Shown: one piece after another, positions 7,717-54,321 of the stretch
How the letters are laid out: each line of letters opens with the position of its first letter
Numbering within the stretch: position 1 is the stretch's first letter
Program-made: the position numbers and the translations under genes
NCBI RefSeq assembly: GCF_048403405.1
Contig: NZ_CP183129.1
Length of the DNA: 64,000 nucleotides
Direction: 5' to 3' (one strand)
Source of the DNA: Escherichia coli
Lineage (GTDB): Bacteria; Pseudomonadota; Gammaproteobacteria; Enterobacterales; Enterobacteriaceae
Notes under the pieces: model-generated
Database searches by the model: none
What the model was told of the DNA's origin: nothing
Seen by the model: the letters and a program-made list of their open reading frames with translations, nothing else

Positions 7717-8181
7717 ATGCGTTTCTGCCTTATTTTGATCACAGCACTGTTTCTGGCCGGGTGTAGCCACCATAAAGCACCGCCGCCAAATGCCAGACTT
7801 TCTGATTCGATTACCGTTATTGCCGGTTTGAACGACCAGCTACAGAGCTGGCATGGCACGCCGTATCGTTATGGTGGCATGACGCGGCGCGGTGTGGACT
7901 GTTCGGGGTTTGTGGTTGTGACGATGCGCGATCGTTTCGATTTGCAGCTGCCCCGAGAAACTAAAGAACAAGCCTCTATCGGCACGCAAATTGATAAAGA
8001 CGAGTTGCTGCCAGGTGACGTGGTCTTTTTCAAAACGGGCTCCGGACAAAATGGTTTGCATGTAGGTATTTACGATACCAACAACCAATTTATCCACGCC
8101 TCTACCAGCAAGGGAGTGATGCGTTCCTCACTTGATAATGTCTATTGGCAGAAAAATTTCTGGCAGGCGAGACGAATCTAG
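7717..8181 (+). CDS. nlpC: NlpC/P60-family lipoprotein (peptidoglycan endopeptidase family)
   Basis: 154 aa; lipoprotein signal with lipobox LAGC; P60 Cys-peptidase motif DCSGFV. Confidence 0.9.
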   Translation: MRFCLILITALFLAGCSHHKAPPPNARLSDSITVIAGLNDQLQSWHGTPYRYGGMTRRGVDCSGFVVVTMRDRFDLQLPRETKEQASIGTQIDKDELLPGDVVFFKTGSGQNGLHVGIYDTNNQFIHASTSKGVMRSSLDNVYWQKNFWQARRI

Positions 8182-29476: not shown

Positions 29477-29832
29477 TTAACAAAGGCGCTCCAGATCGTG
29501 TGCATATAATTCAGCGGCTACCGATTGATAGATCTTCCAGTCAATAAAATTGCCATCAGGGTAGACTTGTTGAAACGCGGTTAAGTCGGGGAAAAAACGC
29601 ATGGTGTTGTTGCCGATGCGGTTATTTATTTTCTCTATGATGGCATGAAGATGTTTTTTCTTTGCTGACGCATAGCCAACAGTTGCTCGACTACACGATC
29701 AGGAATGGCGTATTTGCCATTTTCCCACTGACGCCAGCTTTCACTGTCACCGGTCTGGGCAATCCAGGTCGCGCATTCATCAATAGTCATGGCAAAAATA
29801 TGGCGGAGTGCCTGGAGTTCATAAGCGTTCAT
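29477..29832 (-). pseudogene. ydiL: ydiL (DUF1870-family protein), apparently frameshifted in this sequence
   Basis: Translation from the ATG at 29832 (MNAYELQALRHIFAMTIDEC...) hits a stop after 74 codons; restoring one base in the T6 run at 29653..29658 gives an uninterrupted 118-aa ORF ending at 29477, the length I recall for K-12 YdiL. Confidence 0.65.
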
Positions 29833-29971
29833 CGTGTAATGGCTGCATGAAATAAACAATAAAATATAAATAACATTATCAGCCTGCTGACGGCTTGAAG
29901 AGAGTCACAGTATCTTGTGCAACATTATTGGAAAGCGTGAGGGGCGAGGTAGCGAAGCGGAAAAATGTTAA

Positions 29972-30075
29972 AAAAAAGCCCATCGTGGGAGATGGGCAAA
30001 GACTACACACAGCAATTCGTTGTTTCACTCAGGGGATTTCCATGCTTATAAATCAATATGTTGATTTATAACCGT
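29972..30075 (-). ncRNA. rprA: RprA small regulatory RNA (rpoS translational activator)
   Basis: The minus strand reads ACGGTTATAAATCAACATATTGATTTATAAGCATGGAAATCCCCTGAGTGAAACAACGAATTGCTGTGTGTAGTCTTTGCCCATCTCCCACGATGGGCTTTTTTT, matching the RprA sequence I recall, with an intrinsic terminator at its 3' end. Confidence 0.85.
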
Positions 30076-30260
30076 GAGCTAATAGTAGGCATACGGACTT
30101 TTTGCGTCGATCAGATTCGTCTCATTAGTTTAAAAACTGTAAAGAATTTGCGACAGGTACTACCAGCTGAATGGCGGTAAGCAGGAAAATATGGGGAAGA
30201 GCAAGCAAATATCAATTAGCAGGGGTTAACAATCAGGCGGCAGAGCCGCCTGATGAGAAA

Positions 30261-31373
30261 TTACTTATTCGGTTTCTCGATTTCGCCAAGTTCTTCGAGA
30301 ACTTCTTCCGGTTGGTCAGTCGGCGGTGGGACTTCTTCCACCCACGCGGCAAAAAGACGCCAGGAAACGGCTAACAGAACCGGACCAATAAACAGGCCGA
30401 TCATCCCGAAAGCAATCAAACCACCAATAACGCCAGAGAGAATCAGGATCAGCGGTAAATCGGCACCCATGCGAATTAACATTGGGCGGATGACGTTATC
30501 CAGCGTGCCAACCACACCGCTCCACACTAACAATACCGTTCCCCAGGTGGTATCGCCAGTCCAGTAGAGCCAGATAATCGCCGGAATCAGTACCGGCAAC
30601 GGTCCAAGCTGGACAAGGCAGGAGAGGATCATTAACACCGTGAGCAAAGTTGCATAAGGTACGCCGGATACGGCGAGGCCGATACCGCCAAGCACTGCCT
30701 GTACTAACGCTGTCACCACAACACCCAGCGCCACCGCGCGGATAGCTTGTGCCGCCAGCAGCACGGCGGCATCTCCACGAACGCCTGCCAGACGGGTTGC
30801 AAAATGGCGAATGCCTTGCGCCACTTGTTCACCGCGCCAGTACAGCAGGGCGCTGAAGAGAAGCATCAGCGCACAATGCACCATAAAGCGCCCGATATGC
30901 GCCGCCTGCCCAACGAACCAGGTGGTGGTGGTGCCAATATAAGGACGGACTTTTGCCATGATCGCCGTCCCCCCCATATCCAGCAAGTTGTGCCAGCCTG
31001 CATACAGCTTCGCGCCAATCACCGGAATGGTATTAAGCCACGCCAGATCGGGTAACGTCATGTCACCGCTGGAAATGGCTTTAATTAGCGGGCCGCTGCC
31101 GTCGACGATACTGTTAACCAGCAAGGCAATAGGGATGATAAACACCATCACTAATAACAGCGTCATCACCAGAACGGCGAGAGACCGGCGACCAAACATG
31201 ATCTTTTGCAAACGTAACAATACCGGCCAGGTGGCGATAACCACCGTACCAGCCCATGCAAAGCCGAGAATAAAGGGTTGTACAATCCACAGACATGCCA
31301 CAATCATGATGGCTAAAAAGAGCACCGAAAGCAGAATTTGTGCGACATTCCTGGGCTGACGAACATTTACCAT
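30261..31373 (-). CDS. ydiK: AI-2E/PerM-family inner membrane transporter
   Basis: 370 aa polytopic membrane protein beginning MVNVRQPRNVAQILLSVLFLAIMIVACLWIVQPF. Confidence 0.88.
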   Translation of the reverse strand: MVNVRQPRNVAQILLSVLFLAIMIVACLWIVQPFILGFAWAGTVVIATWPVLLRLQKIMFGRRSLAVLVMTLLLVMVFIIPIALLVNSIVDGSGPLIKAISSGDMTLPDLAWLNTIPVIGAKLYAGWHNLLDMGGTAIMAKVRPYIGTTTTWFVGQAAHIGRFMVHCALMLLFSALLYWRGEQVAQGIRHFATRLAGVRGDAAVLLAAQAIRAVALGVVVTALVQAVLGGIGLAVSGVPYATLLTVLMILSCLVQLGPLPVLIPAIIWLYWTGDTTWGTVLLVWSGVVGTLDNVIRPMLIRMGADLPLILILSGVIGGLIAFGMIGLFIGPVLLAVSWRLFAAWVEEVPPPTDQPEEVLEELGEIEKPNK

Positions 31374-31524
31374 AACTACTTTTCACCTTTTTTGTGCGTC
31401 AAATCGTCGACGCGACGTGAACACGCGAAACTCACCTGCATAATGATGAGCAATTTCAGCGGTTTTTAACAGGCCGATTCTGCCCTTAATTCTGATGGGC
31501 GTGTTAGAAAAAAATGTGGTACAA

Positions 31525-31655
31525 CAACTCAGGCAACACGCAAACGATTTACTCGTCGTATTTCAAGTTGCATGTGCTGCGGCTACGTTCGTTCACCCCA
31601 GTCACTTACTATTGTAAGCTCCTGGAGTTCACTCGCTTGCCGCCTTCCTGCAACT
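31525..31655. repeat. ERIC (intergenic repeat unit) element
   Basis: ACTCGTCGTATTTCAAGTTGCATGTGCTGCGGCTACGTTCGTTCACCCCAGTCACTTACTATTGTAAGCTCCTGGAGTTCAC is the reverse complement of the ERIC consensus core (AAGTAAGTGACTGGGGTGA...); boundaries approximate. Confidence 0.7.
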
Positions 31656-31761
31656 CGAAATCCATAGAGTAAATAAACATCACCTTTCAGTGCGCTATTG
31701 CAGCCGCCTGAAAGAATAGTGTATCGACCTACATCACAGACCGCAGGAAAGGGTCAATATA

Positions 31762-34700
31762 ATGATTCCACAGATTTCCCAGGCACCCGGCGTCGTTCAA
31801 CTGGTGCTTAATTTTTTGCAAGAGCTGGAGCAACAGGGGTTTACCGGAGATACGGCGACAAGTTATGCCGTTCGTCTGACAATGTCGACCGACAACAGTA
31901 TTTACCAACTTCTCCCCGATGCGGTGGTATTTCCGCGTTCAACCGCAGATGTGGCGCTGATCGCCCGTCTTGCGGCGCAGGAACGCTATTCATCGCTGAT
32001 CTTTACCCCCCGCGGCGGCGGCACCGGCACTAACGGTCAGGCGCTCAACCAGGGGATTATTGTTGATATGTCCCGCCATATGAACCGCATCATCGAAATT
32101 AACCCTGAAGAGGGCTGGGTGCGCGTTGAGGCCGGGGTGATAAAAGATCAACTCAATCAGTACCTGAAACCGTTCGGCTACTTTTTTGCGCCGGAACTTT
32201 CGACCAGCAACCGGGCAACGCTCGGTGGGATGATCAATACCGATGCATCCGGTCAGGGATCGCTGGTCTATGGCAAAACGTCAGATCACGTACTTGGCGT
32301 ACGCGCGGTGTTGTTGGGGGGCGATATTCTCGATACGCAACCTTTACCCGTCGAACTGGCAGAAACGCTGGGTAAAACCAATACCGCAATCGGGCGAATT
32401 TATAACACGGTTTATCAACGTTGCCGTCAGCAACGCCAGTTAATCATCGACAACTTCCCCAAACTTAACCGCTTTCTTACCGGTTACGATCTGCGTCATG
32501 TCTTTAACGATGAGATGACCGAGTTCGACCTGACGCGCATTCTGACGGGTTCAGAAGGGACGCTGGCCTTTATTACCGAAGCGCGGCTGGATATTACGCC
32601 CTTGCCTAAAGTGCGCCGTCTGGTGAACGTCAAATATGACTCTTTTGACTCCGCGCTGCGTAACGCGTCGTTTATGGTTGAGGCGCGGGCGCTTTCGGTA
32701 GAGACGGTAGACTCAAAAGTGCTGAATCTGGCGCGGGAAGATATTGTCTGGCATTCCGTCAGCGAGTTGATTACCGATGTGCCTGACAAAGAAATGCTCG
32801 GGCTGAACATTGTGGAATTTGCTGGTGATGATGAGGCGCTGATTGACGAGCGAGTAAATGCACTCTGTGCGCGGCTGGATGAACTTATCGCCAGTCAGCA
32901 AGCAGGTGTGATCGGCTGGCAGGTATGCAGTGAGCTGGCAGGTGTTGAGCGTATTTATGCGATGCGCAAAAAAGCTGTCGGCCTGCTCGGTAATGCCAAA
33001 GGAGCAGCCAAGCCAATTCCGTTTGCTGAGGATACCTGCGTACCGCCGGAACATCTGGCCGATTATATTGCTGAATTTCGCGCGCTGCTCGACAGCCACG
33101 GCTTAAGCTACGGTATGTTCGGTCACGTCGACGCAGGTGTCTTGCACGTCCGTCCTGCGCTGGATATGTGCGATCCGCAACGAGATTTTGATGAAGCAAA
33201 TCTCTGATGATGTAGTGGCGCTTACCGCGAAATACGGTGGTTTGTTGTGGGGCGAACACGGCAAAGGTTTTCGCGCCGAATACAGCCCGGCGTTTTTTGG
33301 TGAGGAACTTTTTGCAGAACTGCGTAAAGTGAAAGCGGCATTTGACCCGCATAACCGACTCAACCCTGGGAAGATTTGCCCGCCAGAAGGTCTTGATGCG
33401 CCGATGATGAAAGTGGACGCGGTGAAGCGCGGTACATTCGATCGACAGATCCCCATTGCGGTACGCCAGCAGTGGCGTGGTGCAATGGAGTGTAACGGCA
33501 ACGGTTTATGCTTCAACTTTGATGCTCGTAGTCCGATGTGTCCGTCGATGAAGATCACCCAGAACCGGATTCATTCACCGAAAGGGCGCGCTACGCTGGT
33601 ACGTGAATGGCTGCGTTTGTTGGCGGATCGCGGCGTTGACCCACTCAAACTGGAACAAGAACTGCCTGAATCCGGCGTCAGTTTGCGGACGTTAATTGCC
33701 CGCACGCGCAATAGCTGGCATGCGAATAAAGGCGAATATGACTTCTCACACGAAGTCAAAGAGTCGATGTCGGGCTGTCTGGCCTGTAAAGCGTGTTCGA
33801 CTCAGTGCCCCATCAAAATTGATGTGCCGGAGTTTCGCTCTCGTTTCCTGCAACTCTATCACACCCGTTATTTACGCCCGCTGCGCGACCACCTCGTCGC
33901 TACGGTTGAGAGTTACGCACCGCTGATGGCACGCGCGCCGAAAACCTTTAACTTCTTCATTAACCAGCCGCTGGTGCGCAAACTCTCGGAAAAACATATC
34001 GGCATGGTTGATTTGCCGCTGCTGTCGGTCCCCTCGCTACAACAACAAATGGTGGGGCATCGCTCGGCAAACATGACGCTGGAACAGCTTGAAGCTCTCA
34101 ATGCAGAGCAGAAAGCGCGCACGGTGCTGGTGGTGCAGGACCCCTTTACCAGCTATTACGATGCGCAAGTTGTGGCGGATTTTGTCCGTCTGGTCGAAAA
34201 ATTAGGTTTCCAGCCTGTGTTACTGCCATTTTCGCCAAATGGCAAAGCCCAGCATATCAAAGGCTTTCTTAATCGTTTTGCGAAGACGGCGAAAAAGACG
34301 GCGGATTTCCTCAACCGTATGGCGAAGCTGGGGATGCCAATGGTGGGCGTCGATCCGGCGCTGGTACTTTGTTATCGCGATGAATATAAACTGGCACTGG
34401 GCGAAGAACGTGGCGAGTTTAACGTCTTACTGGCGAATGAATGGCTGGCAAGCGCACTTGAGTCACAGCCAGTGGCTACAGTCAGCGGTGAATCATGGTA
34501 TTTATTTGGTCACTGTACCGAAGTTACCGCCTTGCCGGGCGCGCCAGCACAATGGGCCGCGATATTTGCCCGTTTTGGCGCGAAACTGGAAAATGTCAGC
34601 GTGGGTTGCTGCGGCATGGCAGGGACTTACGGACATGAAGCGAAAAACCATAAAAATTCGCTCGGGATCTATGAGTTATCCTGGCATCAGGCGATGCAGC

Positions 34701-34816
34701 GACTGCCGCGTAATCGCTGTCTGGCGACCGGATATTCCTGCCGTAGCCAGGTAAAACGAGTTGAAGGCACGGGGGTACGCCATCCTGTGCAGGCTTTACT
34801 GGAGATTATTAAATGA
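31762..34816 (+). pseudogene. ydiJ: ydiJ (FAD-linked oxidoreductase with C-terminal Cys-rich domain), reading frame interrupted
   Basis: The gene is split into ORF 31762..33207 (481 aa, FAD-binding PCMH-type domain, ending ...GHVDAGVLHVRPALDMCDPQRDFDEANL) and ORF 33137..34816 (559 aa, in the +1 frame, continuing ...EILMKQISDDVVALTAKYGGLLWGEHGKG); together they make the roughly 1018-aa protein I recall for K-12 YdiJ. Confidence 0.7.
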
Positions 34817-53855: not shown

Positions 53856-53932
53856 TGGTGCGTCCGAGTGGACTCGAACCACCGACCCCCACCATGTCAA
53901 GGTGGTGCTCTAACCAACTGAGCTACGGACGC
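53856..53932 (-). tRNA. valW: tRNA-Val (anticodon GAC)
   Basis: The minus strand reads GCGTCCGTAGCTCAGTTGGTTAGAGCACCACCTTGACATGGTGGGGGTCGGTGGTTCGAGTCCACTCGGACGCACCA: a cloverleaf with a GAC anticodon and encoded CCA. Which copy is valV and which is valW is inferred from K-12 order. Confidence 0.9.
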
Positions 53933-53936
53933 AGGA

Positions 53937-54013
53937 TGGTGCGTTCAATTGGACTCGAACCAACGACCCCCACCATGTCAAGGTGGTGCTCTAACCAACT
54001 GAGCTATGAACGC
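53937..54013 (-). tRNA. valV: tRNA-Val (anticodon GAC)
   Basis: The minus strand reads GCGTTCATAGCTCAGTTGGTTAGAGCACCACCTTGACATGGTGGGGGTCGTTGGTTCGAGTCCAATTGAACGCACCA: same anticodon arm as the neighbour, different acceptor and T stems, 4 nt spacer. Confidence 0.9.
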
Positions 54014-54321
54014 AACGTTGTAGGTGACAACGGGGACGAATATTAGCGGCAGAGTGGGAAGGTGGCAAGAGGCAAAACGTAATTTTCTGCGCTATTTCGA
54101 CCGTTTGCAGAGCTTTTAAGCAAATTGGCTATATTTTGTTGATTTGCAAGGGCGATTTTTATTCAGGATCGCATTTACATCTGACACAACCCAATAATCT
54201 GTGTATCAGAGTTTAAACAGAGTTGTTTGCCACCATCTCAAAATCTGTCGTGGATAAATCCTCCGTAGCCTTTACACTTAGGTAGCAATAAAGGCACACA
54301 GATGCAGCAAAGGAATAAATC

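Follow-up and report, generated by a model that had tools for sequence, protein, structure and literature searches.

Reading frames at the ydiJ locus

The window analysed here is a stretch of 64,000 nt from Escherichia coli (RefSeq assembly GCF_048403405.1, contig NZ_CP183129.1). Within it, ydiJ occupies the orthologous position, with ydiK and menI as its neighbours, and is 99.9% identical to the annotated ydiJ of six genomes. DNA identity and alignments to Pfam and PDB made the identity of the gene unambiguous, and its RefSeq annotation is D-2-hydroxyglutarate dehydrogenase. The product would be an FAD- and Fe-S-containing enzyme that turns D-2-hydroxyglutarate (D-2-HG) made by SerA back into 2-oxoglutarate. 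In E. coli the enzyme forms homotetramers from 110-kDa subunits and is specific for D-2-HG, and the ydiJ knockout accumulates, in g/L amounts, D-2-HG arising from a side activity of SerA (Samsonov et al. 2022, PMC9504171).

In the window the gene does not form one reading frame. ORF1, the 5' fragment, has the C-terminus ...GHVDAGVLHVRPALDMCDPQ followed by RDFDEANL and a stop codon, and ORF2 (33137..34816, +1 frame) reads ...EILMKQISDDVVALTAKYGGLLWGEHGKG. The earlier note on this DNA, made from the letters alone, had described the first ORF as ending 8 codons after a conserved segment, and RDFDEANL corresponds to those 8 out-of-frame codons. As written, translation would depart from the correct frame after Gln473, add 8 wrong residues and halt at the premature stop codon (33205-33207). 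The remaining 544 codons would then be out of frame, and a functional enzyme would not be encoded. The only conceivable restart codon is the ATG at 33191, which is preceded by a weak Shine-Dalgarno-like triplet alone (GAG, 33182-33184).

The domain structure of the protein was examined in relation to the break. Intact YdiJ contains FAD_binding_4 at residues 52-192, FAD-oxidase_C at residues 281-539 and a 4Fe-4S dicluster domain at residues 577-687 (Pfam). In the window, FAD-oxidase_C is cut at about profile position 182 of 248: positions 1-181 were found in ORF1 and positions 184-248 in ORF2. The 4Fe-4S dicluster domain (Fer4_8; CLACKACSTQC) is present in ORF2, out of frame with the N-terminal half. 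Alignment to solved homologues placed the predicted ligands His455 and His462 in ORF1, and Glu499 and His500 in ORF2. The expected uninterrupted frame of about 1018 codons is therefore broken at codon 474, and FAD_binding_4 and FAD-oxidase_C, with the H-x6-H and EH motifs, do not lie together on one chain. Because the cut falls inside FAD-oxidase_C and separates the active-site ligands, ydiJ as written in the window is predicted to encode no functional D-2-HG dehydrogenase.

Table 1. Position of the ydiJ reading frames, the ydiJ lesion and the other private differences. Positions are those of the window.
Feature	Position	Strand	Description
C>G substitution in nlpC	8020	+	inner (methylated) C of Dcm motif, CCTGG>CGTGG; NlpC L102V; nlpC at 7717..8181
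Shortened T run in ydiL	29654..29659	-	T6, against T7 in all relatives; ydiL frameshift, 65 aa instead of 118; ydiL at 29477..29832
C>T substitution in ydiK	31349	-	C>T on + strand, directly 5' of Dcm CCTGG; YdiK D9N; ydiK at 30261..31373
ydiJ, whole (D-2-hydroxyglutarate dehydrogenase)	31762..34816	+	between ydiK (divergent) and menI; gene order as in annotated relatives
ORF1, 5' fragment of ydiJ	31762..33207	+	481 aa; FAD_binding_4, and FAD-oxidase_C up to profile position ~181 of 248
Dam site GATC	33172..33175	.	6 nt upstream of deletion point
Deletion junction	33181..33182	+	ydiJ nt 1421-1422 missing, the 2nd and 3rd bases of codon Gln474
3' part of ydiJ	33182..34816	+	+1 frame; open frame can be extended back to GTG 33137; carries the final ~65 FAD-oxidase_C profile positions, a 4Fe-4S dicluster domain (CLACKACSTQC) and the C-terminal region
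In-frame ATG of the 3' part	33191..33193	+	Met478 of intact YdiJ; 12 nt upstream of premature stop; read from sequence
Premature TGA closing the 5' fragment	33205..33207	+	follows the 8 out-of-frame codons of ORF1

The ydiJ lesion is a two-nucleotide deletion

Alignments to K-12 and seven other genomes showed that ydiJ lacks the dinucleotide AA between window positions 33181 and 33182, which changes CAACAAGAG to CAACGAG. The same 2-nt gap was seen against MS 69-1, TUM14771, SK1144, GN02461, 4621, TUM1226, OX030728 and K-12. Placement of the gap was unambiguous in the junction alignments to MS 69-1, TUM14771 and SK1144, in a global alignment of the whole gene and in the comparison with K-12 MG1655. 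The gene measures 3055 nt in the window versus 3057 nt (1018 codons) in K-12 MG1655 and the six nearest relatives.

Re-insertion of AA gave a 1018-aa translation that matches WP_000613035.1 of the six nearest relatives in every residue. Relative to K-12 YdiJ, 12 of the 1018 residues are substituted. At the DNA level the window ydiJ was 100% identical to the MS 69-1 allele except for the gap, with no other change in 3055 nt, and the 6 kb around the gene were identical to the intact-allele sequence. Comparison of the 3055 nt with the intact allele revealed no secondary decay in the form of extra stops, indels or excess substitutions. Relative to intact orthologues, ydiJ in the window carries a disabling lesion. 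As nothing else distinguishes the two halves from the intact allele, they represent one gene with one lesion. The absence of any secondary decay suggests that the deletion, if real, is extremely recent.

These results agree with the earlier note, which had proposed a single ydiJ gene read as two overlapping ORFs through a frameshift; the alignments, the relatives and Pfam all bear this out. Both ORFs were found at the coordinates it had given, 31762..33207 and 33137..34816 (+1 frame), and the actual point of the shift, 33181/33182, falls inside the interval of 33170..33200 to which it had been assigned. A 2-nt loss and a 1-nt gain had both been considered, and the gene lengths (3055 vs 3057 nt) uphold the loss and eliminate the gain. 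The alignment to K-12 MG1655 that had been suggested as a check was run, and it placed the 2-nt gap at ydiJ nt 1421-1422.

Distribution of the deletion

The locus was compared by megablast with 5,426 complete E. coli RefSeq genomes, a set from which the source assembly was absent: none of its members matched the ydiJ or the ydiL junction at 100%. The ydiJ region (31762..34816) matched in 5,423 of the 5,426 genomes. Six matched at 99.9% identity, and in each of these the region was 3,057 bases long. An intact 1018-aa ydiJ CDS was annotated in all six of these nearest relatives. The lineage of the window is rare in E. coli: identity of at least 99% at ydiJ was reached by only 6 of the 5,426 complete RefSeq genomes, and the best of the others stood at 98.6%.

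A 161-nt query across the ydiJ junction deletion gave no exact match in the approximately 5,420 matching complete genomes, the best match being 161/163. The exact ORF1 product and the exact ORF2 product, the latter with both possible starts, were not found among approximately 15 billion proteins. JGI metagenomes, scanned for the exact junction pattern, gave 0 hits, which says no more than that the junction was not seen there. The AA deletion is private to this assembly. The earlier note had also entertained two ORFs separately conserved in related strains; a single 1018-codon CDS was found in every relative examined.

Other differences private to the window

To place the ydiJ deletion in context, the whole window was compared with MS 69-1 (NZ_CP146675.1). 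The two sequences were collinear and 99.992% identical over 62.8 kb, with four differences; comparison with five further sisters showed each of them to be private to the window. Three of these lie outside ydiJ, in nlpC, ydiL and ydiK (Table 1). Both private SNPs fall within CCWGG motifs extended by 1 nt on each side, a context that makes up 1.7% of aligned bases (P ~3e-4). The relatives' own 4 SNP sites were not near a Dcm motif in any case. Both private indels drop A/T bases and both break genes (ydiJ and ydiL), a frequency of about 3 per 100 kb. The sisters showed 0-2 SNPs each versus the group consensus over 29 kb, and 0 indels in 6 x 29 kb. Deamination of 5-methylcytosine driven by Dcm was rejected as a poor fit to the two SNPs: it should turn the inner C into T, but one SNP changes the inner C to G and the other, a C>T, lies one base beyond the motif.

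At the ydiL run, T7 was present in all six sisters and in all top-matching complete genomes with the same haplotype. In the public protein collection, 211 contigs carry the exact 65-aa YdiL product, and this A/T run therefore looks like a recurrent hot spot for slippage or sequencing error. The NlpC L102V protein is on record on one contig only (XPL98313.1 / WP_418511097.1). On that contig the accession numbers of NlpC and YdiK differ by 19, although 20 CDS would be expected, a spacing that fits annotation of ydiL there as a product-less pseudogene.

The YdiK D9N protein was also found in an unrelated lineage, on the read-based Logan contig ERR13116100_46 (ydiK at L011 10001-11113). This ERR13116100 contig matches the window base for base over 29729..31847, and its flanks are about 1% different; the shared stretch could be a locally conserved segment or a recombination tract. 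Given the occurrence of YdiK D9N in an unrelated lineage, the SNP may be real, having arisen repeatedly or been acquired by recombination. ERR13116100_46 carries YdiK D9N together with intact ydiJ and ydiL. It was rejected as a read-out of the present strain, as it comes from a different lineage (98.97% identity, 214 mismatches).

The only structural difference from MS 69-1 in 64 kb was an insertion of IS200C (tnpA WP_000526135.1) in that strain (L004 4505-5215). It lies between rplT and pheM, upstream of the pheST leader, and is cleanly absent at window position ~1238. Two adjacent copies of about 78 nt, 92% identical, at 53856-54014 of the window correspond to tandem tRNA-Val genes annotated in MS 69-1 and are ordinary.

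Origin of the ydiJ deletion

The loss of AA from ydiJ is best explained as an assembly artefact, and we hold with moderate confidence that it is a nanopore-type long-read consensus error left by incomplete polishing. In nanopore consensus sequences of Enterobacteriaceae, about 70% of errors are at Dcm motifs, followed by errors in homopolymer length (PMC6591954). In E. coli, 93-98% of the SNVs discordant between nanopore and Illumina are at Dcm sites, and almost all of these are nanopore-only calls (PMC6703438). The differences private to this assembly show the same preference for Dcm motifs and homopolymers and the same bias to A/T deletion: 2 of 2 SNPs are at CCTGG +/-1 and one indel is T7>T6. 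The AA loss would belong to the same error class as these three. Several findings weigh against an artefact. Most of the published Dcm errors affect other positions of the motif than those in the window, the private events are a small sample (n=4), and YdiK D9N, one of the two 'Dcm' substitutions, is also present in an unrelated read-based assembly. The AA loss itself lacks a canonical error context, since it involves no homopolymer of at least 3 bases and no methylation motif and its distance from a GATC is unremarkable. It is 6 nt downstream of this GATC, and 7.6% of window bases are within 8 nt of a GATC, so the proximity is not significant on its own; as context for a basecalling error linked to methylation, the GATC is weak and circumstantial. 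As a consensus error is most likely, the living strain probably has an intact ydiJ.

It is possible, though we are doubtful, that a spontaneous and very recent 2-bp deletion inactivated ydiJ in the lineage of this strain. The product would then be a 481-aa flavoprotein fragment, probably unstable, and D-2-HG would go unoxidised and be accumulated or excreted. The deletion is unambiguous in the deposited sequence, the AA context in CAACAAGAG is not classic for a sequencing error, and the complete lack of secondary decay suits a very recent event as well as it suits an error. Strain-private frameshifts are common among E. coli isolates, which also counts in favour of a genuine loss. Furthermore, ydiJ is dispensable in the laboratory, where the knockout is viable and merely accumulates D-2-HG, so that a real null allele would be viable (PMC9504171). 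However, the three other private differences are all in error-prone contexts, and 'ordinary' private SNPs, present in its sisters, are missing from the window. At a divergence of only ~3e-5 per site, two private frameshifts within 64 kb are also more than is seen in the six sisters, which had no indels over the length compared. The allele has no independent sighting in the approximately 5,420 genomes, the 15-billion-protein collection or the JGI metagenomes. Phase variation was rejected as a source of the deletion because there is no simple-sequence repeat at the site and the loss of 2 nt does not correspond to a repeat unit of CAA-CAA. The earlier note had left the choice between genuine pseudogenisation and an assembly indel, and this alternative stands: the error-like private companions tilt it towards an assembly indel without settling it.

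We also considered whether the split could be functional, with separate halves that reassemble, the second being initiated at ATG 33191 by coupling to the stop at 33205, or with a +1 ribosomal frameshift between 33182 and 33207. The ATG 12 nt upstream of the premature stop permits coupling in principle, and +1 is the direction that a rescuing ribosomal shift needs. Nevertheless, this is very unlikely. The arrangement was present in none of the approximately 5,420 genomes, nor in the otherwise identical sisters, and has therefore not been shaped by selection. The cut in FAD-oxidase_C (~182/248) parts His455/His462 from Glu499/His500, and ATG 33191 has only the weak GAG before it. Inspection of 33182-33207 showed that AAT CTC TGA T has no +1 re-pairing codon, and that the stretch contains neither a prfB-like slippery codon nor an AGGGGG-like upstream Shine-Dalgarno stimulator. 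A programmed prfB-like +1 frameshift, missing both of these elements and absent from every other genome, was rejected. It is extremely improbable that the deletion is real, that both YdiJ halves are made and that they form an active two-piece D-2-HG dehydrogenase; if true, this would be natural fragment complementation across a cut within the FAD-oxidase_C domain. The polarity of the change could in theory be reversed, with the window form ancestral and a 2-nt insertion elsewhere joining two genes. This reading was discarded entirely: K-12, distant lineages and all other E. coli have the 3057-nt form, and one continuous Pfam domain runs across the junction and aligns unbroken to solved homologues. 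The restriction of the deletion to one assembly excludes reversed polarity, and also a split gene that is conserved or a frameshift that is programmed.

Significance

The break in ydiJ is a private frameshift of an ordinary sort, in a gene that is well known, and is more likely artefact than biology. If the deletion is real, one isolate would be without D-2-HG dehydrogenase and would be expected to excrete D-2-HG; this would be a minor phenotype, at the level of the strain, of a dispensable gene. The observation carries little weight for biology, and its practical value is in quality control. Two private frameshifts (ydiJ, ydiL) together with two private Dcm-site substitutions suggest that the source assembly contains a few residual consensus errors per 100 kb. 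With such errors, the 'pseudogenes' and private SNPs of the assembly are unfit for inference of gene loss or outbreaks without read-level confirmation.

Comparison with known systems

Enterobacteriaceae assemblies made from Oxford Nanopore long reads only contain substitutions at Dcm CCWGG sites, shortened homopolymers and A/T deletions, at a few per 100 kb, and the window is alike. Unlike those errors, the AA deletion is outside homopolymers of at least 3 bases and outside methylation motifs.

Among intact proteins, the closest comparison is WP_000613035.1 (MS 69-1, TUM14771, GN02461, 4621, TUM1226 and isolate 68, which is OX030728), from which the window differs by the AA deletion only. YdiJ of E. 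coli K-12 (b1687, NP_416202.1) lies at the same locus (ydiK / ydiJ-menI-ydiH-suf), has the same length once the 2 nt are repaired, and shares FAD_binding_4, FAD-oxidase_C and the 4Fe-4S dicluster domain with the window gene. Unlike K-12 YdiJ, the window copy lacks nt 1421-1422, is present as two ORFs and, on this sequence, could not yield the 110-kDa subunit.

The H-x6-H and EH motifs of YdiJ align with those of human D-2-HGDH and of VAO/PCMH-family 2-hydroxy-acid dehydrogenases (PDB 6lpn, 8jdc, 7qh2 and 9qgz). In the 6lpn alignment, His455, His462, Glu499 and His500 of YdiJ correspond to His434, His441, Glu475 and His476 of human D-2-HGDH. These four human residues bind Zn2+ and substrate, and mutation of any one of them abolished or strongly lowered activity (PMC7801405). 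Compared with these enzymes, YdiJ has an additional Fe-S/C-terminal extension of about 480 aa. In the window, the two halves of the YdiJ active site sit in different frames.
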